Positions 22,683 through 40,871 of a DNA stretch of 64,000 bases are shown here, one piece after another (the first letter of the stretch is position 1; every line of letters begins with the position of its first letter). The notes beneath the pieces are model-generated. The model was not told the origin of the DNA and did not search any database. It saw nothing but the letters and a program-made list of their open reading frames with translations. This DNA is from a virus: positions 4,778 through 68,777 of IMG/VR virus record IMGVR_UViG_3300020401_000002; one strand, 5' to 3'. Made by a program: the position numbers and the translations under genes.

Positions 22683-23546
22683 ATGTCATTAACTGATCAG
22701 CAATATTATCAAGACAGCAGTAATTGGGGAGGTAATCAATTTATAAAACTCAATGACTTAATTAACAACTTCTATTTATTTTATGTAGGAGATGATAAGG
22801 TATTGCAATCTGTTAAAAGATATGACGTTGTTTTCCATGCTAAAAGAGCACTACAAGAATTACATTATGATGCTTTAAAAGATGTAAAAGCATTAGAACT
22901 AGAATTGCCACCAGATCTACAAGTAGAGTTACCTAAAGATTTTGTAAAACTTGTACGATTATCATGGGTAGATGAAAGAGGTAGATTACATCAAGTAATG
23001 AAAGACGACACCTCAACCATAGCAAAAGCATATTTACAGGACAGTAGTTATGATATATTATTTAATAACGATGGTGAAGCAATAGAAGGTACTCCTTATC
23101 TAGAACAAAAAATGACAGAGTTAGCAGATGCTGCAGAGAACAAGAGCACTGCATCAAATCTCAGCGAGGGACAAAACGGTGGTAGATTTGGTATGGATAC
23201 ATCTAGAGCAAACGTAAATGGAAAATATAGATTAGATAAAAAATTAGGTGTAATTAGATTTAGCTCTGAAGTAAAAGGACAGTTTGTAGTAATAGAATAT
23301 ATAACAGATGGATTATCCTATTTATCGGAAGATGAGCTTCAAGTAAACAAATTGGCAGAAGATTTTTTATACAAGCAAATAGCTCATCAAATTGTTAGCC
23401 ACAGATTTGGCATTCAAGAGTATATAGTTCGCAGGTATAAAAATGAAGCATTTGCAGCTATGAAAAATATGAAGATTAGAATGATGGATATCCATCCTTT
23501 TGATTTGATACAATCTCTGAAAGGTCGAAATAAGTGGATTAAATAA
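22683..23546 (+). CDS. Tail ring/tubular protein 2
   Basis: 287 aa; LPKDFVKLVRLSW and VVIEYITDG motifs; coupled to the muzzle gene. Confidence 0.65.
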   Translation: MSLTDQQYYQDSSNWGGNQFIKLNDLINNFYLFYVGDDKVLQSVKRYDVVFHAKRALQELHYDALKDVKALELELPPDLQVELPKDFVKLVRLSWVDERGRLHQVMKDDTSTIAKAYLQDSSYDILFNNDGEAIEGTPYLEQKMTELADAAENKSTASNLSEGQNGGRFGMDTSRANVNGKYRLDKKLGVIRFSSEVKGQFVVIEYITDGLSYLSEDELQVNKLAEDFLYKQIAHQIVSHRFGIQEYIVRRYKNEAFAAMKNMKIRMMDIHPFDLIQSLKGRNKWIK

Positions 23547-26500
23547 TGGAATCAAAAAACGTATTTTCTTCTGGTAAAATGAATCGTGATGCCGATGAGA
23601 GGCTGATTCAACAAGGCGAATATAGATATGCTCTAAACGCAAGAGTACTCAATTCGGCTACATCAGGTGTTGGTGCGTTAGAAAACGCATTATCTAACGA
23701 AGCAGTTACAACAAGCACAGACCTTGATTTCGGCACAAACCCTGTTTGTCTTGGTTCTGTTGCTGACGATTCACTAAATAAAATTTGGTGGTTTGTAAGA
23801 TCTGATGAAGGATCTTATATAGCTGAGTATGATATTGACAATAATCTTGCATCTTTCGTGTTACATGATGAAAGAGCAGGAAATGCCAATGTTCTAAATT
23901 TTTCTAAATCTGACTACGTCCAGGCTGATGTTTTATATGATAATGACAATGACATTATCATGTTGTTTTTTACAGATGGTATAAACGAGCCTAGGAAAAT
24001 AAATGTAGAAGAGGCAAAGCTTTTATCTCAAGGTTCATTTTTAGAATCAGATATAACTGTAATAAAAAAGCCACCTTTATTTCCACCGACACTAACACTA
24101 TCCACGTCTGGCAATACACAAACAAACAATTTAAAAGAAAAGTTTATCACTTTTGCATACAGGTATGAATATTCTGGTGGTGAGTATTCTGTTTTATCGC
24201 CTTTTTCTGAAGTAGCTTTTCAACCGTTTGATTTTACGTTTGACTATTCTATTTCTTCTAACGAGTCGATGTTAAATAAACACAACTCTGCTGCAATAGA
24301 AATTGAAACTGGAGGAAGTGATGTTGTAAAAATAGATTTAGTATTTAAAATATATGGAGATGATACACTTTTCCTGATAGAAAGTTTTGACAAATCTAAG
24401 CTAGGTATAGGTAATGACACTAACTATACTGTTGATTTTGACAACAATAAAATATACAAATTACTTGACAGCAGAGAACTAAAAAGGTATTACGACAATG
24501 TTCCATTAACTGCTAAAACACAAGCAATAGTAGATAACCGTATTATGTACGGAAACTACACAGAGAACTTTGATTTAAAAGATAGAAATGGAGATCAGAT
24601 AAAAATAGATTTTACTACATCTGTTACATCTAAAGAATCAGGTACTCCAGGTCCAGCATACAGATCTGTAAAAACTAACAGAGATTACGAACTAGGTCTT
24701 GTTTATCTAGATGATTTTGGAAGGTCAACAACTGTACTTACATCTAACACAAATTCAGTATACGTTGATGCATCAAAATCTAAATCTGAAAATTCATTAC
24801 AAGTACAGATAAATAGTTTGCCTCCTAAGTTTGCAACTAAGTATAGAATTTTTGTAAAACAAACAAAACAGAATTATTATAATATTCTTCCTACTATATT
24901 TAGAACAGATACTGACACAGGTTTTGTTTATGTACTGCTAAATGCAACGGATGTAAATAAAGTAAAAGAAGATGATTTTGTAATTGTAAAAGCAGATACT
25001 GGAGGACAAAAGACTACACTAGTAGAAACTAAAGTATTAGAAGTATCTTCTAAAGATCTAAACTTTTTAGAAGCTGAAGACTATCCAGGAACAAACGATC
25101 CGCCTATTGCACAACCTGCTGGTGTTTATATGAAGATAAAGCCAGTAGGCTTTAGAATGAATTTAGATGATTATGATGTTTATGAAAATAATGATTATGA
25201 CACTAGTGCTAACGATAGGAATGATCCTCTGGGATTTTATGGAGGGTTACCAGCAAAAACCACAGGACCATTCTATTACGGAACAACGTCATCTGCTGGT
25301 AATGATATTACTGTCGCTGGTACTTATAGTGGTAGCGTTTACGCTAGACTTACTATACAAATAGATGGAACTGGAGATGGTATAAGCACCTTTGACACGT
25401 TTACATGGGCTATAGATTATTTAGATGATGGAACTACACCTGGTGTATCAGCCACAGGAGTAACTATAACTCCAGGAGTACCTATAACTTTAGCAGATGG
25501 TATAACAGTTGACTGGGCAGCAGCAACAGGTCACGATACTTCAGATGAATGGAACTCTACATTAAAACCTGCAAACCCTACATATGATAATGACTCTAAA
25601 GCATACTCTGTTTTTAAAGGAATTGATGAGGTAGCAGACGAAGAGATTAGAGCAGGTACTATACTTAATTTTGAGTACGATGAATATAATGAAGCAACTC
25701 AATATTGGACTTATGAATTTGTGTCTAGTGGTAACTATCCTAATTTAGAGGAGTGGTATTTTAAGAGTGGTGCTAAACCAATATTTGATGCTGAATTTAG
25801 TGAAGCTAGAGTCTTTTTTGAAAGAGGTACTTATGGAAGCAGAACAACAAGCTTAGAACAATCAAGAGCTAATACAGATCCTATACATCTTATAATAAAA
25901 TCATTTGGAACACAAAACAATGATTTTGATTCTAGGGTTAAAGTAGATAATAGGTTTAGAATTACAAAAAGAGCATCTACTGATGAATTATGTTTTGAAA
26001 CAAAACCTGTAGAAGACACAACTGAGTTATATTATGAGACACCACAAACTTATAGTATTGTAAATGGATACCATACAGGTACTGCTGCTTCAGCAGGTCA
26101 AATACCGCAGGTAACACAAACATTAACACAAGGTAGTACCAACTTAACAGCAGTTAATAATGTAGGTTATGTAAACGTAACTGATCCTGTAGCTAGTGAT
26201 GACTGGGACAACTTTGCTGCATTGTCTTCTGATCCTTTTAGTGGAGATGCTTACAAACTGCAATTCACTCTTGAGCCTGATGACTATACAGCATTTGCAA
26301 ACTACACTAATGAACAAGGAGCTCCTGGCAACGGAAGTTTTGGTTTTGGTCAAGGTAAAACAATTACTATTACACAGGGTAGTGCTACTTTAACTGTTAA
26401 AGTATGGTACTTCCAAAGAAATGATATAACAGGAGGCACAAGAGTTACTTTATTTGATGACGATCAAGGTCTAACATCTATGAGTTCTACGAACTATGTT

Positions 26501-27400
26501 AGTGGTTCTGGATCTTTTGCTAATCTTGGAGGAGACTTTACAGTAGTATTTGGTGATGCAGTAGATATAGCTCAAAGCAGTACAAATCCAGCTACAATAG
26601 TTTTACCTTATTTTAACTGCTATGCTTTTGGTAATACAGTTGAAAGTATAAGAATTCGTGATTTATTCAATGCACCTGTATATAAGTTAGATACAAAACC
26701 ACTCACAAACTTACAGGAATATAAAAAATCTTTTAGAACTACTTCTATAACATGGAGTGGTATATATGAACAATCAACACAATTTAATGCATTAAACGAC
26801 TTTAGTCTTGCTGATCTAAACTACAAGGATTTAGATGATGAATATGGCAACGTAGGAAGGATAGTGCCAAGAGGATCAGACCTTATAGCATTTCAAGAAA
26901 ACAGAGTTTCAAGAATCCTTGTAAACAAAAACATATTATTTAATGCTGATGGATCTGGTAACGTAGGAGCATCAACAGATATATTAGGAACTGTCGTACC
27001 ATATGCAGGAGAGTTTGGTGTTACACGACATCCATTCTCAGTTTCGTTGTGGGGTGGACGTATATACTTTGTAGATGAAAGAAGAGGAGCAGTATGTCGA
27101 CTATCACAAGATGGCATAGAGCAAATATCAGATTTCGGAATGGTAGATTTCTTCAGAGACAACCTGAAAGGAGTAGATCCGTTCCGTGTATTAGGTGGCT
27201 TTGATCCACACGATAGGGAGTATGTGGTGTCCCTCCAGGGAACTTACAGTGAATGGAGACCAGATACAATAACGTGTGAGCTCATATATGACGATGATGC
27301 ACCACCGACTTCTACAACGTCAACAACCTCGACATCGTCCACGACAACGTCAAGTACAACAGCACCTCCAACAACGTCATCAACGACCTTTTTTTTTTGA
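23546..27400 (+). CDS. Tail stabilisation/muzzle protein (P22 gp10-like role), N-terminal part
   Basis: GKMNRD.DERL...GEYRYALN start; FAYRY.Y..GEYS..SPFS, NRIMYGNY, FNCYAFGNTVES, GEFGV..HP.S, GGFDPH..EYV motifs. Lacks the expected C-terminus and ends in Ser/Thr repeats at a T10 tract. Confidence 0.75.
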   Translation: MESKNVFSSGKMNRDADERLIQQGEYRYALNARVLNSATSGVGALENALSNEAVTTSTDLDFGTNPVCLGSVADDSLNKIWWFVRSDEGSYIAEYDIDNNLASFVLHDERAGNANVLNFSKSDYVQADVLYDNDNDIIMLFFTDGINEPRKINVEEAKLLSQGSFLESDITVIKKPPLFPPTLTLSTSGNTQTNNLKEKFITFAYRYEYSGGEYSVLSPFSEVAFQPFDFTFDYSISSNESMLNKHNSAAIEIETGGSDVVKIDLVFKIYGDDTLFLIESFDKSKLGIGNDTNYTVDFDNNKIYKLLDSRELKRYYDNVPLTAKTQAIVDNRIMYGNYTENFDLKDRNGDQIKIDFTTSVTSKESGTPGPAYRSVKTNRDYELGLVYLDDFGRSTTVLTSNTNSVYVDASKSKSENSLQVQINSLPPKFATKYRIFVKQTKQNYYNILPTIFRTDTDTGFVYVLLNATDVNKVKEDDFVIVKADTGGQKTTLVETKVLEVSSKDLNFLEAEDYPGTNDPPIAQPAGVYMKIKPVGFRMNLDDYDVYENNDYDTSANDRNDPLGFYGGLPAKTTGPFYYGTTSSAGNDITVAGTYSGSVYARLTIQIDGTGDGISTFDTFTWAIDYLDDGTTPGVSATGVTITPGVPITLADGITVDWAAATGHDTSDEWNSTLKPANPTYDNDSKAYSVFKGIDEVADEEIRAGTILNFEYDEYNEATQYWTYEFVSSGNYPNLEEWYFKSGAKPIFDAEFSEARVFFERGTYGSRTTSLEQSRANTDPIHLIIKSFGTQNNDFDSRVKVDNRFRITKRASTDELCFETKPVEDTTELYYETPQTYSIVNGYHTGTAASAGQIPQVTQTLTQGSTNLTAVNNVGYVNVTDPVASDDWDNFAALSSDPFSGDAYKLQFTLEPDDYTAFANYTNEQGAPGNGSFGFGQGKTITITQGSATLTVKVWYFQRNDITGGTRVTLFDDDQGLTSMSSTNYVSGSGSFANLGGDFTVVFGDAVDIAQSSTNPATIVLPYFNCYAFGNTVESIRIRDLFNAPVYKLDTKPLTNLQEYKKSFRTTSITWSGIYEQSTQFNALNDFSLADLNYKDLDDEYGNVGRIVPRGSDLIAFQENRVSRILVNKNILFNADGSGNVGASTDILGTVVPYAGEFGVTRHPFSVSLWGGRIYFVDERRGAVCRLSQDGIEQISDFGMVDFFRDNLKGVDPFRVLGGFDPHDREYVVSLQGTYSEWRPDTITCELIYDDDAPPTSTTSTTSTSSTTTSSTTAPPTTSSTTFFF

Positions 27401-30400
27401 TACCACTACCTCCACTACTCTGGAGCCTCTCCCTACTACAACAGAGTCTCCTGAACCTACCACAACTACAGCATTTGTATGTAAGCCATTTTACATAGGA
27501 ACTGATGCTGATGGTGACATATTCTTCTCTACTAATCCTGATCCGTGTGATAGGTATGATTACTTTGATGAAGCTTTCTGTCATAATGGAGCTGGTGATT
27601 TGCCAGATGTGTTTGACACAGTATATAGAATAGTAAATGGTCAGTATACACCTTTTGTAGGTTTTAATTCATGGTTTAGCACTTCTAAAACAAACGCATT
27701 TAGAAGTCAAACACAGGCTACACAAATAGGATTTGATGGAACAGTAATGAATAAATCAGCATGTAGTGCTAAAGAATTGCCTACTACATCAACATCATCT
27801 ACTTCTAGTACGACTTCTAGTACAACTTCATCTACCACAACATCTAGTACATCCTCTAGTACAACATCAACATCTAGTACCTCATCTACTACTAGCACTT
27901 CATCAACAACTACATCGTCAACTAGTAGCACAACGACAAGCACAAGCTCAACTAGTAGCACATCTAGTACAACATTATTGCCAACAAGCAGTACGTCAAC
28001 ATCAAGTACAAGTTCTAGCACAAGCTCTAGCACAAGTAGCTCAACAAGTAGTAGTACATCTAGTAGTACATCTAGTAGTACAAGTAGTTCTACAAGTAGT
28101 ACATCTTCTACTTCATCTACATCATCAACAACGAGTACATCGTCAACATCATCAACATCATCAACGTCATCTAGTACAATACCAACTTGTAATCCATTTG
28201 TTTTAGGAACTGGAACTGGAACAAGCGTACCTTATTGTAACTCTGATCCAGCAGTAGCTTGTGAAGCTGCTACAAGAATGTTAGCGGATATGTGTCATAA
28301 CGGTGATACAACTATACCAGAGGTTGGAGATAGAGTAAGAAGAATAAATGGTATAGTATTGCAAGGTGGAAACTGTTGGTTCCATGCTGGTGCTTCTTCT
28401 AATGCTGATTTGTCAACTGAGTATTATACACATATAATACAAATAGATAATAGTGGATACGTTGTAAGTGTTTATGATTGTAACCCACCTACAACAAGCA
28501 CAACTAGCTCTTCTACTAGCTCAACTACATCTAGCACAACGTCAACTAGTTCTTCTACTACAAGCACTTCTAGTACGACAACTTCATCTACAAGTTCTTC
28601 AACGACTAGTACAACAAGTACTTCTAGTACATCTAGCACTACAAGCTCTACTAGTTCTACTAGTTCTACAACAGAATCACCATTTACAACAACAAGTACT
28701 TCGAGCTCTACATCGACAAGTACTTCAAGCTCTACAACCTCAACGTCATCTACAACATTACCACCATACACAGAAATATTTAGAGCTCCATATCATTGTA
28801 ACACATCAACACATCCGACTTGCTCTACATCTTGTACAACACCAGTACAGTTTGACAATCAGACACTTTATTTTGATGGTGTGCTAACACCTTACCAGGG
28901 ATATATATACACTGATCCACAATTAACACAACCTTACTTTACAGGTGTATTTACATATCAAGGATTCTCATTTGATTCTAATGACAAAATGCAATGTAAA
29001 ATTGCACCTATGGTAATCCGTACATCTCAATCTGGTGCTATTATGGATATATGTGCAGCATGTCCAACAACAAGCACGACAAGCACAAGTTCTAGTACAA
29101 CATCGACATCAAGCACAACTAGCACAAGTAGTTCCACTAGTAGCACAACTTCCAGTACGTCTAGTTCAACATCATCTAGCACGACAAGTACATCTAGCTC
29201 TACAACAAGTACATCATCTAGCACAACTAGTACTTCATCGAGTACATCATCTAGTACGTCTAGTTCGACTACTTCTACGAGCTCAAGCACAACGAGTACA
29301 TCATCTAGTACATCATCCAGTACCTCTTCTAGTACCTCTAGTACATCAACGTCTAGTACAAGTTCTACAACAACATTTGGATGTCCTACTGGATCTTTCC
29401 CTGATGGTCCGTATAATTATCCAATATATCTTCTTAGGCAGTTGAGTGGTGGTGGGTATGTTTATGCTAATGCATATGAGTCTACTCCATATCAACCAGG
29501 AGATATAGTCACATTAAATGCAGGAAGTACAAACTGTTACTACGTTTTATGTTATTATCCAACCTCAGCATTTACGACTAACCAGGCATCTAGCGTAGCT
29601 GGTCCATGTCCAACAACTACGACTACACTACAACCTACGACTAGTACTTCGTCTAGTACCTCATCAAGTACATCGTCAAGTACTTCATCAAGTACATCGT
29701 CAAGTACTTCGTCTAGTACTTCGTCTAGCACATCTTCTAGTACTTCTTCTAGCACTACAAGCACGTCATCAAGTACATCAAGTACAACTAGTAGTACATC
29801 TTCTTCAACTTCTAGTTCTACATCAAGTACAACATTAGAGCCAACGACTTCTACATCTAGTTCTACATCATCAAGTACATCTAGTTCAACGTCTAGTTCT
29901 ACAAGTAGTTCTACATCTAGTTCTACAAGTAGTTCTACAACTAGTACGAGTAGTTCAACGTCTAGCACAAGTTCTACATCAAGTACTACAATAGAGCCGA
30001 CTACGTCAACATCTAGTACAACTATAAATCCTGGTTTATCTACAACGACAACTTCTAGTACATCAAGTACAACTAGTTCTACAAGTAGTACCTCAACATC
30101 GACAACCTCAACTTCAAGTACATCAAGTACAAGTACATCGAGTACAACACTACTACCAACAAGTGTCTTTTATTTAGGATCTGATCAATACGCATATGCT
30201 TGGTTTGCTAAAGAAAACTATGAATTTGCTCAGACCTTTGGTGGACCAACACATTGGTTCCATGATTTCTTATGTGATATAAATACATTTAAGCAAACAA
30301 AAAGACACAACGGTACAAATGCACTACCGCAAGTTGGTGATATGATTTATAATCCTAACACTTCTATGTTTGATGGATCATTAGGTGGTCACCAGGGATC

Positions 30401-31706: not shown

Positions 31707-31718
31707 TTCGTAAATTTG
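31704..31718 (+). promoter_or_regulatory. TAnnTTTG promoter 4 nt before ATG
   Basis: TAATTCGTAAATTTG overlapping the upstream stop; one mismatch to 36040-36054. Confidence 0.7.
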
Positions 31719-31722
31719 TAAA

Positions 31723-34700
31723 ATGGCAAACAATGTACTAATACAAGCAACAACCATAAGGGAACTAAGCGTAGGAGAGCTAGGTCCTTTTACATTTAAA
31801 GCTGCTCAAGGAAAAATATTTTCTGGTCCTCCTAATATATGGATATATGGAAACGAATGGGATGGTAACGCAGAAGATATACTAGTTGTTGACGATACTG
31901 CTACTGATCATGCAATGACAGATAGATCTGGTAATGGTATATATGGTACACAGACTTTTAAAGTTAGTTTGAAATATGACATAGGCGATATAGAATGTGG
32001 TGATCAACCAAATAATATTGCTACAATAGATTTTCCTACAACTACCATAGGTGAAAATTGTATAGACGTTACAAGCAATATAGTTTTTTCATACTTTAAT
32101 ACTGGTGGCGATTTCCCTATATTCAGTCCTTTTGTTTATCCAAGAGAAATACCACAAAATGAATACATAGGAGATTCAGGAGGAAGTTATGGTGTTGCAG
32201 CTTTAAGCACACAAACATATACTTTTTATGTAGCACAAGAAACAAACGCATGTACATTTTATACATCAACTCTTATAAATGGTGGAGCAGCTTTTGGAAT
32301 TAGTGCTCAATATTCAAAAACAGTTAGTGTTACGACTAATGTTTATACTGGATCTATAGATATTTATTGGGGTACTATAACATTAGTTGTTAACGGTGAT
32401 TTTGTAAGTGCAAGTATGATATTTGATAATGGTTTAAGAGGCACAGAAAACTGGATTACTTGGAATGATAAATGCGATTTTTCAGCAGGAAGAAGAAGAA
32501 CTGGTGTATCTACAGGTATACATACTTTAGTAAAAACAAATAACTGTGAGTTTATAGGAGGAAAAAGAACACCAATATACTCAGCAACAACTAACAGTCA
32601 ATCTAGTTCTTATGTCATTATGCAGTCTGCCACAAACGGTTATGGATGGGGTGCAGTAAATCAAGCTAGAGCTGCTGATTGGAATAGTAATAGTGCCGAG
32701 ATTATTGAGCCATATGGTAGGAATTATGATGAAGGAGGCTCAGGCACTATAATAACTGTTTATGCAAACGGTATTGTTAGGAGATCTATAGATAGAGGTG
32801 AAACTTATCAAAGCACAACTTTCCCTAATACATGGAGCACTGGTACATTTCAGACTAGAATAGAAGATGTAGCATATGCAGGTGTAAATGCATCTGGAAA
32901 TAAAGTTTGGTATTGTATAGGTATGTATTTACAAACAGTATCTAGTATTCAATATTTAAACGAAGCAGGGTTTTTTATATCAGAGGACGATGGACAAACA
33001 TGGAGTTTTGTAGATCAATATACAGACAACTCAGGTGGTGATGATTTACAAAGAACTGTAGAGTACTACGGAACTACAGGTTCTTTTCATAGACAATTTA
33101 GAATTCATGCTAATCTAGATAAAAACTATGTGTTTATAGAAGTTACTGGTATGAAACATTCAGATACTAGTTTTACACAACAAGTTTTATTTAAATATCA
33201 TCCAAGTCAAACAGGAAGTAGTAACCCACAAGCAAAAGTTGCTCCTGTTGCAGAGTTTGTGTCAGTAGGCAGTACTCCAGTTTCGTGGGATTATGCAGAT
33301 ACTTTTCAAGTAAATAATAATGTACCTGGAGGAGGATCAAATGGTGTGAACAACATGAGAGATCCTGGTGTAATGTTCGCAGTAAATGATGCTAGTGGTG
33401 TTTGTATTTGGATGCAAGGCACAATGTATATGATGTCTTGGAATTGGGGATTGAATTGGACTGAAGATAAAGATATGATGACGAACATAGGTACAACAAA
33501 AGTCCATCCAACAACAGGACTAACATTGTTGTATCCAGAACGAGCACCAGATGTAGTGTTTTATGATGGTCAATTATTAGCGTTAACATCTCAAAAATAT
33601 GGTGAGACAAGTTCTACTTCATTTAGAAATTATAGTGTCGTTAATGATGTTAATGACAGATTGATAGATGGTATGATGAGGATTGTAGTAAAGCAAAACG
33701 ATTTAGTTACAGGCGAAGTTTTAGATGACTTTACAACTTACACTACATACGGTCAAGTGCCATCAGTTACTAGTACTGATTTTGGTCCATACAATCAAGT
33801 GTACGGAAGTGGTGCACCTATTAGTTTTGGGAATGGTAGGGGATACATATATATGGGTTATCAGACAGATTTAGATCCTTCATATGTCAATGTATACTTT
33901 ATGGTATATGATTTTGCAAATGATACAGTTTTAAATAACGGTGACTTAAATAGTTTTGCAGGTGGAATCATGCCAGACATAAGAGGTGTTCATGGAAATA
34001 CTGTGTATTTTTCACCAAATTCTAATGGACCAACTATAACTACTAGAAATGTTTTATATAAAACTACAGATAATTTTGCTACAGCATCCGTTGTTTTTAC
34101 TGGTCCAAAAACTAACTCTTATTCTACAACACTTTGTGAATATGATGGAAGTTCAAACAATTTTATAGTTACACAAACAAGTAGTGGGTATGTAAATCCT
34201 GGTGATGCATTATATTATTCTACAGATGGGAGTACTTTTACTGCTGTTGCAAATCTCAGCAACATAGGTGATGGTACATCCTGGAATACTGCTACCATAA
34301 GCAAGAATTGTTTTATAGGAAGTAATTGTGTTATGGAAAACGGATACATTTATTTTCTAGATGACACTAGACAAAGTACATATGGAACTTTAGGAAGATC
34401 TTTTGTTATCCCTGTGTCTGAAATAGCAGATGCTAGTACTTGGGTTAACTATGAAATTACTAGTGCGTTAAAAAATAACAATGGAAGTTACAATGGTGTA
34501 ACTAGGATAGTTGCTATAGATGATAAAGCAATAATAAAATATGGTAGTAACGAATGGCAATACACTACTAATCAAGGTACTAGCTGGACTGACCTTACTT
34601 CTATAACCGACACTTCTGGGAATGTATGGTCTACAAGTGATTTGAATAGTTTTTATGCACAAAAAAATCATAATGCAGGACAATTTATCCTAGCTTATCA

Positions 34701-36042
34701 ATCAGCTTATAATAAGGCTAATACTATATTAGGAACTTGGTGGCAAATATTATGGACAACTGACTTTAGTACCTGGGAGTTTGCTGAATGGTATCAGCAG
34801 GATCCAAATGGCGACAACAATTCTTCTACTCCAAACTTAGGCGGATGGACAGGGGATGGAACTAACGGTGATATAATTGCTACATTTAGGCAAAGTAATT
34901 CATACACACAAAAATTAAGAAAGGTAGTTGTTTCAGATTCACAAGCAACAGCAAATCCAGCCATATCTAGTTTTATAGATACATGGGAGGTTATTCAAGA
35001 TTATGAATATGTTCCTGCTGCTAACACAAGTGCAACAACTATTCAAAACGGAGCATATACAGATTGCCTGTATATAGATAAAAATACTGATTCTGGTGTG
35101 CCTATGTTAATGACTAATCACATAAATTCAGTAACATGCTATCCTGAGCCATTAACACCTAATGTTGCTAATGGACCAATAGGAGAAATTATAGCACCTA
35201 CTTATACTGGATCGACTGCCTTTACTTACGCTCCTGCAACACAACAATATAAATACAGAGCTAGTTCCGAACAACCGTTTAGTATTGTATACACAAAATC
35301 AAATGGTGCATTGATGCAATATGATGGAGTGTTCGATATATTAGTTTATAGTCTTTCCGAACCTGTATTAATTGAAGGTTTTGTAAATCAGGATATAGAT
35401 GTAAGTATTAATGAATTAATTAATAGATTCCCAACACAACCTAATAATGCAGATCCTAACTTTGCTGCTTATGTTTATTTTAATAGAGAGATAGTATGTT
35501 ATGAGCATTGGAATATTACAGCTACTGGTTCTCAAAATGGCGTTACATGGTCGCCTACAGCAGACATAGGTTACATACCTACAGCATCTGCAATCAATAC
35601 TACACAAATGAGACATACATTCAACAGAGAAGATGTTGCTTTATTAAGTAGTGCAGGAGAACTCTTTAATGATCAAAAAACATACACTAATGATTTTGCA
35701 ATAGAGGTTCCAACAGGATATGATATGGACAATCAGGGAATAGGATTTCCTCTGACTTATAGTTATGGTCAATATCTTTTATGTTTCCCTCCTTCGGATA
35801 ATAGAAAGTTAGACCTTATAGGTCTTAAATGGTATGCTGATTTGAATGGTACACAATACGCTGACGGTTATTATTGGTATGAGAACTTGACTGATTATAG
35901 TTTTGGAGGTTTTATAACTGGGTATGCTTCTATGACTCATCCCTGGGCTAATATAGATGACAACACATTTTTGCGTATACAAAATGGTTTTGTTACCGAG
36001 GTTGGACATGCTAAAGATTTACCTAATTATGATCGATGTTAA
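31723..36042 (+). CDS. Large Asp-box (BNR) beta-propeller protein, putative receptor-binding/appendage protein
   Basis: Asp-box-like repeats SIDRGETY, SEDDGQTW, SWNWGLNW, TTDNFAT, STDGSTF, TTNQGTSW, TTDFSTW; rich in G/S/T/N/Y. Confidence 0.65.
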   Translation: MANNVLIQATTIRELSVGELGPFTFKAAQGKIFSGPPNIWIYGNEWDGNAEDILVVDDTATDHAMTDRSGNGIYGTQTFKVSLKYDIGDIECGDQPNNIATIDFPTTTIGENCIDVTSNIVFSYFNTGGDFPIFSPFVYPREIPQNEYIGDSGGSYGVAALSTQTYTFYVAQETNACTFYTSTLINGGAAFGISAQYSKTVSVTTNVYTGSIDIYWGTITLVVNGDFVSASMIFDNGLRGTENWITWNDKCDFSAGRRRTGVSTGIHTLVKTNNCEFIGGKRTPIYSATTNSQSSSYVIMQSATNGYGWGAVNQARAADWNSNSAEIIEPYGRNYDEGGSGTIITVYANGIVRRSIDRGETYQSTTFPNTWSTGTFQTRIEDVAYAGVNASGNKVWYCIGMYLQTVSSIQYLNEAGFFISEDDGQTWSFVDQYTDNSGGDDLQRTVEYYGTTGSFHRQFRIHANLDKNYVFIEVTGMKHSDTSFTQQVLFKYHPSQTGSSNPQAKVAPVAEFVSVGSTPVSWDYADTFQVNNNVPGGGSNGVNNMRDPGVMFAVNDASGVCIWMQGTMYMMSWNWGLNWTEDKDMMTNIGTTKVHPTTGLTLLYPERAPDVVFYDGQLLALTSQKYGETSSTSFRNYSVVNDVNDRLIDGMMRIVVKQNDLVTGEVLDDFTTYTTYGQVPSVTSTDFGPYNQVYGSGAPISFGNGRGYIYMGYQTDLDPSYVNVYFMVYDFANDTVLNNGDLNSFAGGIMPDIRGVHGNTVYFSPNSNGPTITTRNVLYKTTDNFATASVVFTGPKTNSYSTTLCEYDGSSNNFIVTQTSSGYVNPGDALYYSTDGSTFTAVANLSNIGDGTSWNTATISKNCFIGSNCVMENGYIYFLDDTRQSTYGTLGRSFVIPVSEIADASTWVNYEITSALKNNNGSYNGVTRIVAIDDKAIIKYGSNEWQYTTNQGTSWTDLTSITDTSGNVWSTSDLNSFYAQKNHNAGQFILAYQSAYNKANTILGTWWQILWTTDFSTWEFAEWYQQDPNGDNNSSTPNLGGWTGDGTNGDIIATFRQSNSYTQKLRKVVVSDSQATANPAISSFIDTWEVIQDYEYVPAANTSATTIQNGAYTDCLYIDKNTDSGVPMLMTNHINSVTCYPEPLTPNVANGPIGEIIAPTYTGSTAFTYAPATQQYKYRASSEQPFSIVYTKSNGALMQYDGVFDILVYSLSEPVLIEGFVNQDIDVSINELINRFPTQPNNADPNFAAYVYFNREIVCYEHWNITATGSQNGVTWSPTADIGYIPTASAINTTQMRHTFNREDVALLSSAGELFNDQKTYTNDFAIEVPTGYDMDNQGIGFPLTYSYGQYLLCFPPSDNRKLDLIGLKWYADLNGTQYADGYYWYENLTDYSFGGFITGYASMTHPWANIDDNTFLRIQNGFVTEVGHAKDLPNYDRC

Positions 36043-36054
36043 TTCGTATATTTG
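36040..36054 (+). promoter_or_regulatory. TAnnTTTG promoter 3 nt before ATG
   Basis: TAATTCGTATATTTG-CAT-ATG(36058). Confidence 0.7.
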
Positions 36055-36057
36055 CAT

Positions 36058-37020
36058 ATGGCTAAATATAGATCTGGATACGCAAACGTAGAGACTTTAA
36101 GAAAGTATGTTAATGGAAAACCGACTAACATTACAAAAGAGAATGTTCCAAGTGATCCTGACTACAGACCTAAATACCTATCAGACCAATGTGATGTAAA
36201 TACTGATATCCCAAACGGTGTTTACAGTCTTCCTATAGAAGCAGATCCATATGTTACTGATGCATATGTTAGTCCTGAAAAATCAGACAAACAAGAAAGC
36301 ACTCTAAGTTTTAATGAAATGAATAAAGGATGGACATCTTTTCATTCATACATTCCAGAGTTTTTGGAAAATATAAACAGTGACTTTTACTCATTTAAAA
36401 ATGGTCAACTATATAAACATCATGCAAATGAGGACAATAGAAATACTTTTTATGGTCAGGCATATAACACAGAATTAGGTTTTGTTTCTAATCCTGCACC
36501 ATCTGAAAACAAAATATTTAAGACAATAGAAATAGAAGGTGACAGTGGAGATTGGGATGTTACTGTCATGACTAATTTAGATAGTGGTCACGTTAACAAG
36601 GAATCTTTCAAAAAGAAAGAAGGATTTTATTATGCATACATAAGAAGAGACAACGATGACATTACTAATACCCAACTGTTATCAGTTCAGGGTATAGGCA
36701 ACTTAATACTACTCGACAATCTAACTTATCAATTTAATTTTGTGCCTAGTACTATTGCAATAGGCGATAGTTTATATCGTGCTCAAGGAGGATCATATCA
36801 ATTAATAGGTGTGGTATCTGGTAGAACAGCACAGACACTAACCGTAGGAGGTTCCACAGTCGTACCTAACCCAGGAGACTTTTTCTTCGGAGCCAAATCA
36901 CCAATAGCAGAAAGTTATGGATTGAAGGGGTATTTTGCTAACATTAAGCTAGTAAGTAACAGCACCTCACCAGTAGAAATCTTTGCAGTAAACTCAGAGA
37001 TTTCAAAAAGCTTTCCATAA
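36058..37020 (+). CDS. Tail stabilisation/muzzle protein, C-terminal part with separate N-terminal module
   Basis: TLSFNE..KGWTSFHSYIPE...FYSFKNGQLYKH...NTFYG, KIFKTIEIEG, KKEG.YYAYI and LKGYF motifs, which I recognise as the C-terminus of such proteins; true start probably ATG 36058. Confidence 0.7.
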   Translation: MAKYRSGYANVETLRKYVNGKPTNITKENVPSDPDYRPKYLSDQCDVNTDIPNGVYSLPIEADPYVTDAYVSPEKSDKQESTLSFNEMNKGWTSFHSYIPEFLENINSDFYSFKNGQLYKHHANEDNRNTFYGQAYNTELGFVSNPAPSENKIFKTIEIEGDSGDWDVTVMTNLDSGHVNKESFKKKEGFYYAYIRRDNDDITNTQLLSVQGIGNLILLDNLTYQFNFVPSTIAIGDSLYRAQGGSYQLIGVVSGRTAQTLTVGGSTVVPNPGDFFFGAKSPIAESYGLKGYFANIKLVSNSTSPVEIFAVNSEISKSFP

Positions 37021-37964
37021 TGATATACCTTTGTGCTCAACCAGCAACCAAATATTACGCATGGCAAATAGATGTAATGCTGTGGTCTTTTAAACAGCAA
37101 GGCGTTCTTTTAGATAATTGTCATATAGTTTGTGCTAAACACGGTGAGATAGATCCTCATTTTAATATAATGATATCTAAATATCCAGGTGTCAACTTTT
37201 CTTTTTATGATGACACAAGATTAGATAAAAGATATATATCAAGCATAAGACCTCATATTATACAAAAACACTACGAGGCATATCCTTTTTTATTTACTAG
37301 TTCAGTTTTTTATCATGATTGCGATATAGCTTTAGTTAAACCTATGCCAGAAGAAAAATTATCTAGAGATGATATTTGCTATGTTTCTGATACAATTTCT
37401 TATATAGGTTATGATTATATATTATCTAAAGGACGTGATGTTTTAGATAAAATGTTATGTGTAATGGCTATAGACGAAGAGACAGTTAAAAAGAATCAAT
37501 GGCATTCAGGTGGTGCACAATACATTATAAAGAATGTAGATAAGTATTACTGGATGGATGTAGAAAGAGATTCTAATAGATTATTTATTGATGTAACAGA
37601 ACTCAATAATCAAAAGAAAGCTGCTGATCCTTCTCATCACGAATTACAAATATGGTGTGCTGATATGTGGGCAGTCCTATGGAACCTATGGAAAAGAGGA
37701 AAACATACTATGGTAATTCCAGAGATGGATTTTACCTGGTCAACTTCAAGTATAAATAACTGGGGAGAACATTCTATTTATCATAATGCTGGTGTAGTAG
37801 GAGATGCAAAAGACAGGCAGTTTTTCAAGGCAGAGTTTATGGATAAATTCCCTGACTTAGATAGAGAGTATGAAACTAATACATGTGGTCATAAATATTA
37901 TGAGATGGTAAAGAAAGCTTTATCGCCTAAAGAACACATTGTAGATGTTAAGATACTACCATGA
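37020..37964 (+). CDS. GT-A glycosyltransferase resembling HPAT / peptidyl-serine galactosyltransferase (GT95/GT96)-like enzymes
   Basis: YYAWQ..VM..SF N-terminus, Y..SIRPH, DxD (YHDCD), GGAQY, WCADMWA and IYHN motifs. Confidence 0.55.
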   Translation: MIYLCAQPATKYYAWQIDVMLWSFKQQGVLLDNCHIVCAKHGEIDPHFNIMISKYPGVNFSFYDDTRLDKRYISSIRPHIIQKHYEAYPFLFTSSVFYHDCDIALVKPMPEEKLSRDDICYVSDTISYIGYDYILSKGRDVLDKMLCVMAIDEETVKKNQWHSGGAQYIIKNVDKYYWMDVERDSNRLFIDVTELNNQKKAADPSHHELQIWCADMWAVLWNLWKRGKHTMVIPEMDFTWSTSSINNWGEHSIYHNAGVVGDAKDRQFFKAEFMDKFPDLDREYETNTCGHKYYEMVKKALSPKEHIVDVKILP

Positions 37965-38107
37965 AAAATATAATTAAGTGTAGTCAATGTGAAGAAGAGT
38001 TCCCTAATGGTTACGACTATAGAATGCATTGGGAACAAGTACACTTTTATCCGTTCTTAAAAAAAAACAAATTTGATCATGTATCCGCATTAAAAAAACA
38101 AAAATGA
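37961..38107 (+). CDS. Small C2H2 zinc-finger protein, 48 aa
   Basis: Hand-translated MKNIIKCSQCEEEFPNGYDYRMHWEQVHFYPFLKKNKFDHVSALKKQK = C-x2-C-x3-F-x8-H-x4-H; ATGA overlaps at both ends. Confidence 0.65.
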   Translation: MKNIIKCSQCEEEFPNGYDYRMHWEQVHFYPFLKKNKFDHVSALKKQK

Positions 38108-38805
38108 TATCTGTAATTACTTTAACATACAAAAGACACCACATACTAGAAGAAGCAATAGAATCTTTTTTAAGACAAAACAGAGATGACTGTGAGATGA
38201 TTGTAATAAATGATGCACCTAATGTAACATATAAGTCATTATATCCATACCCTAATGTTAGAATTATTAATTGTCCACACAGGTTTGGATCTATAATAGA
38301 GAAATTAAAGTTTGGATTTACTGTTGCGAACCATAAATACATGTATAGATTAGACGATGATGATCTACTCACTGAGTTTGCTCTTAGAGATAGTATAAAA
38401 GCTATAGAAGAAAATCCAGGATATGATGTGTATAGATCTAAAGGACATTATTTTTTCTCTAATAATGAATATGGAGACAGAGGTTCATCAATAAACAACG
38501 GTAACATATACACTAAAGATTATATAAATAGTATACAAGAGTGGAAAAACAAATCATTCGGTGAAGACAACTGGCTAACTTTTTTTCATGATGGTAAAGT
38601 ACATGAGTATGATGCCATGAGTATGATTTATAGGTGGGGTATGTATACATATCATATCTCAGGAATGGGTGATGTAGATCAGGAAGAGATGTTTGAAAGG
38701 GTAGATAAAGATATGAATGAAGATGGAGAATATATATTAGTACCAAGATTTATAGAAAATTATTATGAGCAAATCAGAACAAAAGACAAACTTGCAGCAG
38801 TTTAG
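38104..38805 (+). CDS. Glycosyltransferase family 2
   Basis: ISVITLTY.R...L.EAIESFL.Q, IVIND, LDDDD and GED motifs of the GT2 GT-A fold. Confidence 0.85.
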   Translation: MISVITLTYKRHHILEEAIESFLRQNRDDCEMIVINDAPNVTYKSLYPYPNVRIINCPHRFGSIIEKLKFGFTVANHKYMYRLDDDDLLTEFALRDSIKAIEENPGYDVYRSKGHYFFSNNEYGDRGSSINNGNIYTKDYINSIQEWKNKSFGEDNWLTFFHDGKVHEYDAMSMIYRWGMYTYHISGMGDVDQEEMFERVDKDMNEDGEYILVPRFIENYYEQIRTKDKLAAV

Positions 38806-39454
38806 TGTAATTATTCCTACTTTATGGAAGACTGACAGAATACATCCATTGTTAAGTCATTTAAATAGATGTGAATGGGTTGGAGAAATTTTGGTTATAG
38901 ATAATGCTAATGAAGCTCCTACCAGACTAAGGGGTGGTCTTGATAAAGCTCGTGCAATATCTCTGCCTGAAAATATATTTGTAAACCCAGCATGGAATCT
39001 AGGTGTTAAAGAAGCTAAATATGAAAATGTTTGTATAGCAAATGATGATATATTTTTTAATGACCTCAGCGTGTTTCCCTGGGTATCATCAAAACTTTCA
39101 CTAGGCATTGTCGGTATGTTTATAGGAAACTTTTATGGTGAAGTTATGCATGATGGAGGTAATGATTTTGTACTAGAAAGAACACCAGAGAATGGCACAC
39201 AAAGAGGTTGGGGTTGGGGTTGCTTGTTTTTTGTAAGAAAAGACATGTATGTACCTATACCTGAAGATTTAAAAATAGCTTGTGGTGATGATTGGCTTAT
39301 ACAAAATGTTAAAGGCGGAGCCTGGTGGATAAAAAATCTAAATTTATATTCAGATGACATATCTATAACTAGCGGTAGAGGTGAGTTCAGACATCAACAA
39401 GCAGACGATGCTAATTTATTTAAATCAAAATATGACAAATACAATATATCCTAA
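38765..39454 (+). CDS. Glycosyltransferase family 2-like
   Basis: FSVIIPT, EILVIDN, AWNLGV..A, ANDD and CGDDW motifs. Confidence 0.8.
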   Translation: MSKSEQKTNLQQFSVIIPTLWKTDRIHPLLSHLNRCEWVGEILVIDNANEAPTRLRGGLDKARAISLPENIFVNPAWNLGVKEAKYENVCIANDDIFFNDLSVFPWVSSKLSLGIVGMFIGNFYGEVMHDGGNDFVLERTPENGTQRGWGWGCLFFVRKDMYVPIPEDLKIACGDDWLIQNVKGGAWWIKNLNLYSDDISITSGRGEFRHQQADDANLFKSKYDKYNIS

Positions 39455-40442
39455 AGTAAACAATGTATTTTTCTACTGGGATGGTGACATTTCTCCAGAA
39501 AGAAAAAAAATATTAGATGATGCTCTATATTCAACAAGATATTTTAATCCAGACAGAGACATATATCTAATCACTAACTCATTAAAACAAGAAGATTTTG
39601 AAGACAGATACAAAATTTTGGTGCATTCTTGGGATGATAATATATATGAGCCTATATTCCATCTTCCTAATATCACTGACTTAAAAAATATATATAACAA
39701 TACACATCCTAGGGAAAGATCTGATTTATTTAGATTACTCTTGTTGTGTCAATTTGGTGGAACTTATGTAGATACTGATGACATAGCTATACAAACTATG
39801 CCAAGTCCACAAAAAGTGGTGAATGCTTTCTGTGCTTCTTATGATCCGCATACAGCACATTACAGTAAAGTAGAGCCAGATGACTGTATTCCTGGCAAGT
39901 ATAGAGAGTATAGAGGATACGATGACATACCAGTATTTCCTAGAAATGATTGTATGATGAATTTTTTACCACACAATCGTATAATAGGTCAAATATTAAA
40001 TGACAAAAGGTTTCACGAGAGAGATAAAGAGGTATATATAGGTGATGAGTTTTCTTTTCAAAGATTAATATTAGAGGCTATAAAAGATAATATAGATCAA
40101 TTAGGCAAAAGTTTTAATCTAACTCTAAACTTATTATATCTTTTTGAAAGTCATGTAGGAGTGGCATCATATTGGGACAGATGTTGGCATGGTGGACCTA
40201 TGTGTGATATATGGGTTTTAGAAAAGGATGACGAAAGATGGTCAAAGTATAAAACCAACAGAAAAGAATCTCTACAAGTGTTATATGATTCCATAAGAAA
40301 GTTTCCTGTTGTCTCATTTATGTGGATGCATGACAAGTGTGGACACCCTGAATGGCAACTTGATAAGCTAGATGATGACAAGGACTACTATATCTCTACC
40401 TGGATCATAGATGCAATACGGTCTCGATACCGTACCTATTAA
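39432..40442 (+). CDS. Glycosyltransferase, GT32 / DxD sugar-binding family
   Basis: FFYW near the N-terminus and ERSDLFRLLLLCQFGGTYVDTD signature; start probably ATG 39432. Confidence 0.8.
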   Translation: MTNTIYPKVNNVFFYWDGDISPERKKILDDALYSTRYFNPDRDIYLITNSLKQEDFEDRYKILVHSWDDNIYEPIFHLPNITDLKNIYNNTHPRERSDLFRLLLLCQFGGTYVDTDDIAIQTMPSPQKVVNAFCASYDPHTAHYSKVEPDDCIPGKYREYRGYDDIPVFPRNDCMMNFLPHNRIIGQILNDKRFHERDKEVYIGDEFSFQRLILEAIKDNIDQLGKSFNLTLNLLYLFESHVGVASYWDRCWHGGPMCDIWVLEKDDERWSKYKTNRKESLQVLYDSIRKFPVVSFMWMHDKCGHPEWQLDKLDDDKDYYISTWIIDAIRSRYRTY

Positions 40443-40460: not shown

Positions 40461-40871
40461 ATGGAATTCAATGTAAGAAAATTAAACATTGATGACTATG
40501 ATAAACACCTAGTCAAGTGGTGGAAAGCCTGGGGATGGAAACCTATACCTAGAGACTTTTTACCAGAAGATGCAACTAGTGGGTTGATGGTCACAAAAGG
40601 AGATCAAAACATATGTGCTGGGTTTTTGTATTTAACAAATTCTAAAGTAGCTCTTACAGAGTTTGTAATATCAAATAAACAGTATAAAGAAAAAGATAGG
40701 AAAGAGGCTATTGAATTGCTAATAGATTGTATTATAGAACTAGCCGATAAAAATGGGTATAAGTACGCTCATGTTATATTGAAGAACGAAAGTTTGTTAA
40801 ATAAATACCTGGATGCAGGATATGTTTTATCTGATAGAAAGGTAACAGAAATGATAAAAGTATGGCAATAG
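40461..40871 (+). CDS. GNAT-fold acetyltransferase-like protein
   Basis: VRKL...DY, ICAGFLY, acetyl-CoA-loop-like segment and Y...GY; position before internal virion proteins is typical of podoviruses. Confidence 0.6.
   Translation: MEFNVRKLNIDDYDKHLVKWWKAWGWKPIPRDFLPEDATSGLMVTKGDQNICAGFLYLTNSKVALTEFVISNKQYKEKDRKEAIELLIDCIIELADKNGYKYAHVILKNESLLNKYLDAGYVLSDRKVTEMIKVWQ

Follow-up and report, generated by a model that had tools for sequence, protein, structure and literature searches.

In the serine-rich repeat adhesins of Gram-positive cocci (GspB, Fap1, PsrP), hundreds of Ser/Thr-rich residues, encoded beside a cluster of glycosyltransferase (GT) genes, are glycosylated in the cytoplasm, giving a stalk on which binding domains are held out. 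Glycosylated fibrils, together with virus-encoded machinery for their glycosylation, are found in giant viruses such as Mimivirus, and +1 frameshifts at shifty stop codons are known from prfB (RF2) and, in Listeria phage PSA, from capsid and tail genes. Most of what has been described to date of phage virion glycosylation concerns actinobacteriophages (Freeman et al., 2023), whose own GTs, according to the accounts in PMC12619734 and PMC13313380, modify virion proteins, there on C-terminal extensions of capsid and tail-tube subunits, in the cytoplasm and before assembly. The muzzle protein of PhicrAss001 is described in PMC10172136 as a hexamer at the tail tip. Here we analyse a stretch of 64,000 nucleotides (nt) from the IMG/VR virus record IMGVR_UViG_3300020401_000002 (positions 4,778 to 68,777), called the window throughout, in which a muzzle gene is split and is followed by a long Ser/Thr-rich reading frame and by four GT genes. 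With a probability of roughly 0.65, we read this locus as a split muzzle with a +1-recoded, mucin-like appendage at the tail tip, which would be glycosylated by the first of the four enzymes (GT1 below) and then by two GT2-type enzymes and one GT32-type enzyme.

The source of the window is a complete uncultured marine podophage of the Cellulophaga phage phi38:1 kind, Pervagoviridae-like and with a crAss-type muzzle. Whereas the muzzle is a single polypeptide in PhicrAss001 (gp44) and in phi38:1 (gp097, 1,324 aa), its two parts are encoded in the window by separate open reading frames (ORFs) 8.7 kb apart (Table 1), with the crAss_MUZ and crAss_MUZ_C domains both above their gathering scores (PF25731, PF25729; the latter scored on ORF 36052-37020). 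Residues 1-1243 of the N-fragment align with residues 2-1087 of phi38:1 gp097, and residues 82-320 of the C-fragment with its residues 1079-1323. The fragments thus adjoin at residues 1079-1087 of the phi38:1 protein, which places the cut in the ancestral gene at about residue 1080, with new sequence inserted exactly there; the C-fragment starts with a leader of about 80 aa that is foreign to the muzzle. In phi38:1 the muzzle gene is followed directly by a homologue of window gene 40461-40871, from which it follows that the window from about 27300 to 40442 is lineage-specific, except for the muzzle C-fragment (36058-37020). The muzzle of Maribacter phage Panino is likewise split.

The N-fragment ends in a 22-residue Ser/Thr tract (27302-27367) followed by FFF and TGA. 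At this point the DNA reads ACC TTT TTT TTT TGA (…TTSSTT FFF stop), and the +1 frame, with D T T T S T T L E P…, prolongs the Ser/Thr tract seamlessly. Tracts were defined as at least 80% Ser/Thr in 15-residue windows; in the frame 27399-31706, 546 of the 1,436 translated positions lie in six of them, of 139, 95, 109, 137, 45 and 21 residues, and the whole frame contains 354 Ser and 320 Thr. An earlier reading of the window from its letters (the original prediction) had announced several hundred near-pure Ser/Thr residues in a separate protein of about 1435 aa. The composition was as announced; the separate protein was not found, as the ORF has no conserved start of its own and continues the muzzle ORF 23546-27400 in the +1 frame past the T10 run. 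Throughout the 68.8-kb genome there is no further such tract beyond 27399-31706 and the 22-residue tract that ends the preceding ORF, and hence no rival acceptor.

The site is conserved. Viral loci fetched for comparison are numbered with L; in all five contigs of the lineage (the window, L012, L013, L014 and L094, the latter four being 69-85% identical to the window in GT1 or 59-76% in the muzzle), three TTT codons precede TGA and D-T-T-T follows in the +1 frame. The flanks differ, with ACC before the T run in the window and L012 and GAT in L013, L014 and L094, L013 and L014 being nearly identical around the site. In L012, L013, L014 and L094 the Ser/Thr frame is closed upstream by a stop 12-21 codons before the T run, and its first possible start lies 53-110 codons into the frame, past the first tract, such that no start precedes the tracts in four of the five contigs. 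The arrangement is that of a shifty stop: the P-site UUU can re-pair with UUU, the next codon is GAU, and the 0-frame UGA occupies the A site. We conclude from these sequences that the extension is reached in the window lineage only by a +1 event at U10-GA, for which the long isoform is the predicted product. All three Phe codons are kept as TTT in the five contigs, which weakly favours a need for a long homopolymer.

Two explanations of the interrupted frame by other means were rejected. An assembly error at the T run was discarded, the same state being found in five IMG/VR contigs and three other assemblies: Logan contigs of three other studies cross the T run with 0 gaps, one strain carrying 19 substitutions in 671 bases (Logan contigs are consensus sequences from which rare variants are dropped; those of run X5 end before the T run). 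Reassignment of a stop codon was discarded because other late genes, including a 2,437-aa ORF, are long and open in table 11 and because the junctions at ORF3 (31723-36042) and ORF4 (36058-37020) consist of a TAA stop followed by an ATG start. The 2,437-aa ORF (43328-50641) itself contains an A10 run at 43671-43680 with its frame unbroken, a second long homopolymer in a late gene.

The +1 event could take either of two routes, ribosomal slippage, in which tRNA-Phe, with UGA in the A site awaiting decoding, would shift from UUU to the UUU that overlaps it, or slippage of the polymerase, dropping one U on the 10-nt homopolymer. In either case a fraction of ribosomes or transcripts would shift by +1 and yield a long isoform with the 1,435-residue appendage, and at low efficiency the appendage would be placed on a minority of the six muzzle subunits. 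It is improbable, in our judgement, that the T10 run is instead a phase switch at the DNA level, with only T9 or T12 variants making the long form, or a lesion that silences the extension. Homopolymers of this length are indeed prone to slipped-strand mutation, and the contigs are consensus sequences that would drop rare variants; nor does the surrounding sequence mark the site out, with no stable, stimulatory RNA structure 3' of it (z -1.21) and T runs of at least nine not being rare in the window (7 found vs 5.3 expected in this AT-rich genome), so that the case for recoding is carried by conservation and frame logic. A switch or a lesion is nevertheless difficult to reconcile with five lineage contigs and three other assemblies that are all out of frame, none in frame, with three TTT codons in every contig, and with a downstream frame that is open for 4.3 kb and whose conserved modules give a confident model (mean predicted local distance difference test score, pLDDT, 89.9), which indicates that this frame is under selection. 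Analogous shifts at stop codons into poly-Thr, described below for Staphylococcus phage SA2, Arcanobacterium phage TPWB06 and Enterococcus phage VPE25, also speak for recoding.

In three relatives the recoding step is dispensed with: in L100, L101 and L103 (44-45% identity; ORFs of 1,457, 1,725 and more than 1,822 residues), a Ser/Thr-rich extension continues the N-part of the muzzle in frame from about residue 1075. Given the conserved +1 shifty stop and these in-frame fusions, we conclude that the extension belongs to the muzzle and is predicted to be made as part of it; anchoring at the tail muzzle, as proposed originally, is thereby better backed than the sequence alone had shown. A further muzzle-related ORF of 2,686 aa (L024:1926-9986) matches phrog_14478 at residues 4-363 and phrog_18548 at residues 948-1079, continues for about 1,600 residues past the latter match and has a GT1 homologue directly downstream.

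GT1 lies within the late structural operon and is translationally coupled. No Pfam family was found for it at E up to 5, Glyco_transf_8 included, no NCBIfam family, and no PDB sequence match at E up to 1. Its structural model (pLDDT 94, predicted template modelling score 0.90) has a GT-A fold, the closest in VIA comparisons being glycogenin (Z 15.3, 223 residues aligned, root mean square deviation 3.3 Å), followed by Skp1 galactosyltransferase AgtA (Z 14.3), the catalytic domain of UGGT (Z 14.2), LgtC (Z 14.1) and GlyE of the pneumococcal serine-rich-repeat (PsrP) pathway (Z 13.8); with 8-14% identity, these matches hold at the level of the fold only. Both Asp residues of a D100-x-D102 motif are invariant across 32 sequences. 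On the strength of the model, GT1 is a glycosyltransferase with a fold closest to GT8 enzymes such as glycogenin, and we propose that it is an initiating protein O-glycosyltransferase. The label GT95/GT96-like originally given to GT1, which would imply likeness to a peptidyl-Ser galactosyltransferase or a Hyp arabinosyltransferase, is tentative, no solved GT95 or GT96 structure having turned up among the matches. Its family comprises 1,729 proteins at E ≤ 0.001 among 1,986 candidates, and in IMG/VR it was confirmed at no fewer than 571 places among 598 candidate stretches.

For the genomic context of GT1, 80 viral loci with a GT1 homologue were dereplicated to 44 by 5-mer overlap of GT1, and L087 was dropped as its GT1 ORF had not been called. 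An uninterrupted run of five or more Ser/Thr residues ([ST]5+) occurs in the gene directly upstream of GT1 (position -1) in 30 of 43 loci, vs 7/42 at position -2, 5/41 at -3, 1/42 at +1, 2/39 at +2 and 15/498 (3%) of the genes more than three positions away. Counted as [ST]4+ runs per 1,000 residues, the -1 genes hold 7.5 and distant genes 0.65; when any of the three upstream genes is considered, 34 of the 43 loci have a run. Several of the loci that fail a stricter criterion of 10 of 12 residues carry TTTxAPTTT-type linkers between Cys-containing modules in the -1 gene. By PHROG, 40 of the -1 genes comprise three muzzle, two other virion structural, one major tail protein and one prohead protease gene; 31 have no hit, and two more match only a family of unknown function.

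The converse was examined from the muzzle. Of 80 loci with a muzzle N-terminus, 32 that extend at least 8 kb past the muzzle start were kept and 48 set aside; the table contains near-duplicates. Seven of the 32 have GT1, five in range and two (L092, L093) further on the same contig, as L012 and L013 show. These seven contain 23, 47, 23, 13, 4, 5 and 6 [ST]5+ runs, the 25 others 0-3, such that four or more runs are found in 7/7 GT1-positive vs 0/25 GT1-negative loci. Searching the whole records of 15 of the 25 negatives (four of them at least 90% complete) found GT1 in 0/15, with 5/5 positive controls recovered. Two of the 48 loci set aside have GT1 (4 and 6 runs), and six with at least four runs end before a possible GT1. 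L117, a fragment (43% complete), serves as a natural control: at its muzzle split it has a 663-aa Cys-module protein with no Ser/Thr runs, and it has no GT1. None of 75 phage records matching GT1 came from Cellulophaga, Flavobacterium, Tenacibaculum or Maribacter, and the stretches fetched of phi38:1 (~21 kb) and Panino (~27 kb) have no Ser/Thr tracts on the coding strand. The linkage between GT1 and Ser/Thr tracts is strong. It had been suggested for the complete set of four GTs; it stands for the first (30/43 at -1; 7/7 vs 0/25), the only constant partner, and the other three are one of many variable sets.

Cultured phages of other phyla show the same pairing. From the 40 records listed among the 75, nine, all of different genera, were picked, with hosts in Enterococcus, Lactococcus, Lactobacillus, Staphylococcus, Clostridium, Arcanobacterium and Chryseobacterium, and in all nine the GT1 homologue is directly preceded by a tract of poly-Thr or Thr/Ser. 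The tract is found at the C-terminus of the major tail protein in Enterococcus phage phiFL1A and Clostridium phage phiCTP1, at that of the 'major structural protein' in Lactococcus phage 1706, in a small Thr-rich protein in Lactobacillus phages iLp84 and Bacchae, and within a 429-aa protein in Chryseobacterium phage MA9V-3. In the remaining three it lies in another frame that starts at the stop codon of a structural gene: in SA2 and TPWB06 the tail-tube gene ends with ACT CCC TAA and the +1 frame encodes 60-80 poly-Thr residues, and in VPE25 the capsid gene ends with GCA AAG TAA and the -1 frame runs into poly-Thr (candidate frameshift sites of SA2, TPWB06 and VPE25 at L008:3640-3760, L011:3690-3800 and L009:3700-4010). 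By their sequences, these look like the design of the window, with a minor Thr-rich isoform of a major virion protein encoded beside a GT. An automatic scan for recoding among 79 ORFs with Ser/Thr runs upstream of GT1 found only L012, L013 and VPE25; it under-counts, as SA2 and TPWB06 were missed because a TTG codon precedes their tracts. We give even odds to a wider reading in which phrog_4417 marks a pan-phylum 'glyco-tag': a GT8-like O-glycosyltransferase for Ser/Thr tracts on virion proteins (capsid, tail tube, decoration, muzzle), with tags often kept substoichiometric by recoding of a stop codon (UUU_UGA in the window, CCC_UAA in the Staphylococcus and Arcanobacterium siphophages, A_AAG_UAA in VPE25), with variable elongating enzymes and, in marine flavobacterial podophages, a mucin of more than 100 nm at the tail tip with a new module of about 95 residues.

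The analysis shows how the genes are arranged, that the recoding site is conserved, which fold GT1 has and that GT1 is linked to Ser/Thr tracts; the frameshift product, the chemistry of glycosylation, the order of the enzymes and the biological role are predictions in the mechanism that we propose for the window. The muzzle gene, split at about residue 1080, has received roughly 13 kb at and after the split. The appendage would consist of five long and one short Ser/Thr tract, separating small modules of the disulfide type and followed by a C-terminal region of the calcium-binding type. In the cytoplasm, before assembly, the soluble GT8-like GT1 would set the first sugar on the tracts, and the GT2-, GT2- and GT32-type enzymes would then extend or cap the glycan. 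The result would be a stiffened, protease-resistant, mucin-like thread at the tail tip, borne by a minority of the six muzzle subunits, and most likely presenting its modules to the host surface or to polysaccharide gels for an initial, reversible contact. The roles first suggested for it, as a spacer, in adhesion or in shielding, are candidates.

Several observations weigh against this reading. The gene at position -1 lacks an [ST]5+ run in 13 of the 43 loci, and in L058, L062, L070 and L084 the neighbours of GT1 are non-structural. The 43 GT1 loci and the 32 muzzle loci come from related phages and are not independent events, and the nine cultured phages were selected. GT1 matches no CAZy-linked Pfam family at the level of sequence, and the likeness of its fold, at 8-14% identity, shows a GT-A transferase and not a protein O-transferase. 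At the recoding site, apart from the unremarkable T-run count and lack of RNA structure given above, ATG codons occur in the Ser/Thr frame of the window about 35 codons before the T run, so that for this genome taken by itself an independent start is possible. The glycan, the trans-frame peptide and the long isoform are predictions from the genes.

The loci without a run upstream, and those with GT1 among non-structural genes, would suit a different assignment, in which the tracts are plain, unglycosylated linkers and the GT cassette acts on host envelope glycans, for superinfection block or receptor change, or on phage DNA. According to PMC12619734, DNA glucosylation and serotype conversion are the best-known tasks of phage GTs, and the GT2, GT32, GT25 and WavE families are typical of polysaccharide and lipopolysaccharide synthesis. 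We regard this assignment as unlikely, however, as the link between GT1 and Ser/Thr tracts is position-specific and recurs across phyla in unrelated virion genes (muzzle, major tail protein, capsid), GT1 is coupled within a late structural operon, the four GTs have no membrane segments, and a PHROG scan of the other 31 ORFs (13 of them without a hit) found no gene for base hypermodification. It is less probable still that the tracts are modified by the O-glycosylation machinery of the host, the phage GTs only decorating a host-made glycan. Bacteroidota do have a general protein O-glycosylation system; its target, however, is a short D-S/T-hydrophobic motif and its place of action lies outside the cytoplasm, where phage virion proteins neither fold nor assemble, both steps being cytoplasmic, and GT1 is linked in the same way in phages of Firmicutes and Actinobacteria, phyla not known to have such a system. 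Modification of the muzzle extension by the phage enzymes, beginning with GT1, remains the reading that we favour.

Table 1. Positions of the features of the locus in the window, with the evidence for each
Feature	Position	Strand	Evidence
Muzzle protein N-fragment, 1,284 aa	23546-27400	+	PF25731 crAss_MUZ, 57 bits (cut-off 27); phrog_14478, E 2.6e-241
Recoding site, T10 run TTT TTT TTT TGA	27389-27400	+	+1 frame GAT ACC ACT ACC (D T T T)
Predicted +1-frame extension of the muzzle N-fragment, 1,435 aa and stop	27399-31706	+	Six Ser/Thr tracts, Cys modules between, C-terminal region
Six Ser/Thr tracts	27774-28190, 28482-28766, 29058-29384, 29613-30023, 30030-30164, 30966-31028	+	At least 80% Ser/Thr
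Cys module family of ~95 aa ('HNG..P.VGD')	28191-28481; copies 27483-27764, 30228-30515	+	jackhmmer, alignment, model
Asp-rich thrombospondin type-3-like motif (DTDGDGIPDHIDPDDDNDGC)	31050-31145	+	PF02412, E 0.026, below cut-off; NCBIfam throspo3_MtsC, E 0.012
ORF3, 1,439-aa protein, candidate tail-tip or receptor-binding protein	31723-36042	+	Between appendage and muzzle C-fragment
Muzzle protein C-fragment, 320 aa from ATG	36058-37020	+	PF25729 crAss_MUZ_C, 67.5 bits (cut-off 27); phrog_18548, E 3e-51
GT1, GT-A fold glycosyltransferase	37020-37964	+	phrog_4417, E 1.3e-59
48-aa ORF, C-x2-C-x12-H-x4-H (zinc-finger-like) pattern	37961-38107	+	Translation
GT2-family glycosyltransferase, 233 aa	38104-38805	+	PF00535, E 3.3e-15, 56.8 bits (cut-off 23.3)
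Divergent GT2-like glycosyltransferase, 229 aa	38765-39454	+	phrog_29879 'galactosyl transferase', E 1.2e-7
GT32-type glycosyltransferase (DXD sugar-binding region)	39381-40442	+	PF04488, E 2e-8, 35.2 bits (cut-off 23)

The DNA of the tracts consists of imperfect tandem repeats of 9-45 nt, with a GC skew down to -0.23. From the window to L012 the tracts vary strongly in length while the modules are kept, as would be expected of spacer tracts. Mucin domains extend by about 0.25 nm per residue; if extended to this degree, the five long tracts would sum to roughly 130 nm. Contigs of sequencing run X4 break within the first tract (27877-27900), the tracts being hard to assemble.

The modules between the tracts comprise 76-125 residues. 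In jackhmmer searches of ORFs from the fetched viral loci, the Cys module obtained 53-60 hits per query (near-duplicates counted separately), most of them in Ser/Thr-tract proteins of phages of the muzzle family. The model cited above was built from a 41-sequence alignment and matched no solved structure (best Foldseek E 0.31; best Z 3.3 in a wide VIA search). The C-terminal region of the extension, of 226 residues, carries the Asp-rich motif, which by its sequence is probably calcium-binding. Homologue hits to this region mostly cover the motif alone (5-7% coverage), and the long muzzle proteins P0169 and P0177 share about 24-25% of the region.

ORF3 probably encodes a tail-tip or receptor-binding protein; its orthologues in L012-L014 have 1,358-1,451 aa. 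No Pfam, PHROG or NCBIfam family was found for it, and Atlas search scores did not exceed 0.78, below lead level. With three Asp-box-like motifs, at residues 355, 420 and 948, it could hold a beta-propeller. The junctions after the Ser/Thr ORF and after ORF3 (31704-31725 and 36040-36060) are nearly alike (TAATTCGTA[A/T]ATTTG…ATG), which suggests a repeated junction or a cassette boundary. Compared by eye, the N-terminal ~50 residues of the muzzle C-fragment (36058-36300; …GYANVETLRKYVNGKPT…P.DP.Y.P) resemble the N-termini of Ser/Thr-tract proteins in locus L015 (L015:7199-8401) and in Chryseobacterium phage MA9V-3 (L003:7709-8995), and may be a docking peptide common to these proteins.

Downstream of GT1 the remaining GT genes follow, four in all at 37020-40442, two genes past the Ser/Thr ORF as originally predicted, with the 48-aa ORF between the first and the second. 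The ATG of this ORF overlaps the GT1 stop and its TGA the ATG of the GT gene 38104-38805; it is not present at the corresponding place in L012, the two GT genes there overlapping each other directly. Two of the four had been predicted as GT2 enzymes. For 38104-38805 the family assignment is clear from its own score, whereas 38765-39454 reaches 12.9 bits for PF00535 against a cut-off of 23.3 and is assigned to GT2 provisionally, through its homologues, about half of which, among those listed at 40-51% identity, carry PF00535. The GT32 assignment of 39381-40442 was confirmed by a PF04488 score above the cut-off, and its orthologues in L012 and L013 match the same family; the true start of this gene is probably a later ATG near 39432. 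All four GTs lack a membrane-like segment (maximum 19-residue hydropathy 1.41) and are accordingly soluble.

Across the GT1 loci, a further Pfam GT (GT2, GT32, GT29, GT6, GT25, Fringe or WavE) is found at positions +1 to +3 of GT1 in 17 of 41 dereplicated loci. The genes beside these GTs often encode FkbM- or TylF-type methyltransferases, and also radical S-adenosylmethionine (radical-SAM) enzymes, a 2-oxoglutarate oxygenase and an acetyltransferase. The set GT2, GT2, GT32 is common only to the window and L012-L014, and partly to L051 and L077. Variable downstream GTs beside a constant GT1 fit a fixed initiator with variable elongating or tailoring enzymes, in an order that we infer. In L015 (10906-11952) and L031 (10908-11948) a radical-SAM/SPASM gene directly follows the GT1 homologue, in the place of further GTs, a hint that the same proteins may be modified in another way.

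The record from which the window is taken has 68,777 bp with a 77-bp terminal overlap and is classed in IMG/VR as having direct terminal repeats and as 100% complete. It shares with phi38:1 (Pervagoviridae) and Panino the gene order terminase, portal, capsid genes, two small virion proteins, muzzle, three conserved virion proteins and giant protein. The muzzle is about 36% identical to its best cultured relatives, and the 87 phage records that match it have hosts that are all Flavobacteriia, or carry no host name. Among the sequencing runs listed, 20 hold at least part of the stretch; most are marine or seawater metagenomes, the others being labelled as air metagenomes (three) or with a coded organism label (one), and no RNA run was among those listed.

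A literature search, with most subscription journals outside its scope, found no account of virion proteins with Ser/Thr tracts beside a GT of this family, and none of a phage tail-tip protein that carries a mucin-like extension. If our reading is true, one unannotated family would extend virion glycosylation to phages of Bacteroidota, Firmicutes and Actinobacteria, with a simple genomic signature, a Ser/Thr tract followed by a GT, and phrog_4417, now listed under 'unknown function', would acquire a function. A shifty stop leading into a glyco-tract would represent a new class of recoding that sets the number of subunits with an appendage. Since phages of this kind are abundant in the sea, a mucin-like thread at their tail tip would bear on how hosts are found in capsule, gels and particles, and glycan coats on phages against Enterococcus and Staphylococcus could affect stability and immune recognition. 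Cultured phages with a GT1 homologue make the reading directly testable.

Compared with the recoding systems introduced at the outset, the site in the window resembles the shifty stops of prfB and PSA in that the P-site codon would re-pair one base downstream (UUU to UUU) beside a slowly decoded stop, and that of PSA in predicting a C-terminally extended minor form of a structural protein. It differs in its 10-nt homopolymer, which makes polymerase slippage an equally good route, and in an extension that, with 1,435 aa, is longer than the protein extended and is inferred from the genes only. With the secreted mucins of eukaryotes and the glycosylated Pro/Thr linkers of cellulases, the appendage shares long Ser/Thr tracts, length variation between strains and alternation with small Cys-rich modules; unlike these, it involves no secretory pathway and little proline, and its enzymes are unrelated in sequence to polypeptide GalNAc-transferases. 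As in Mimivirus, glycosylation machinery for external fibres would be encoded by the virus, here a 69-kb tailed phage with an appendage at the tail tip, there a eukaryotic giant virus with fibrils on the capsid.

The virion glycosylation of actinobacteriophages, as far as the cited accounts describe it, is similar in using phage GTs on extensions of virion proteins, in the cytoplasm and before assembly. In the window, the four GT genes 37020-40442 lie between the muzzle and the next conserved virion genes, and the candidate acceptor is the Ser/Thr extension of a virion protein, the muzzle N-fragment. The window departs from that system in its marine Bacteroidota host, its tail-tip muzzle acceptor with 546 tract residues, its +1 recoding and its constant enzyme, a GT8-like member of phrog_4417 for which there is no Pfam model. 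The serine-rich repeat adhesins share with it hundreds of Ser/Thr residues beside a GT cluster and, at the level of the fold, the likeness of GT1 to GlyE of the PsrP pathway. Unlike in the adhesin loci, none of the four GTs has a GT4/GT-B Pfam hit (GtfA/GtfB type), GT1 being of the GT-A type, no accessory Sec genes were found in Pfam and PHROG scans of the window ORFs (13 small ORFs without a hit), and the product has no cell-wall anchor and would be part of a virus particle. Having neither a GtfA/GtfB-type enzyme nor an accessory Sec system, the locus is not a member of the serine-rich-repeat loci, but it would work like them.

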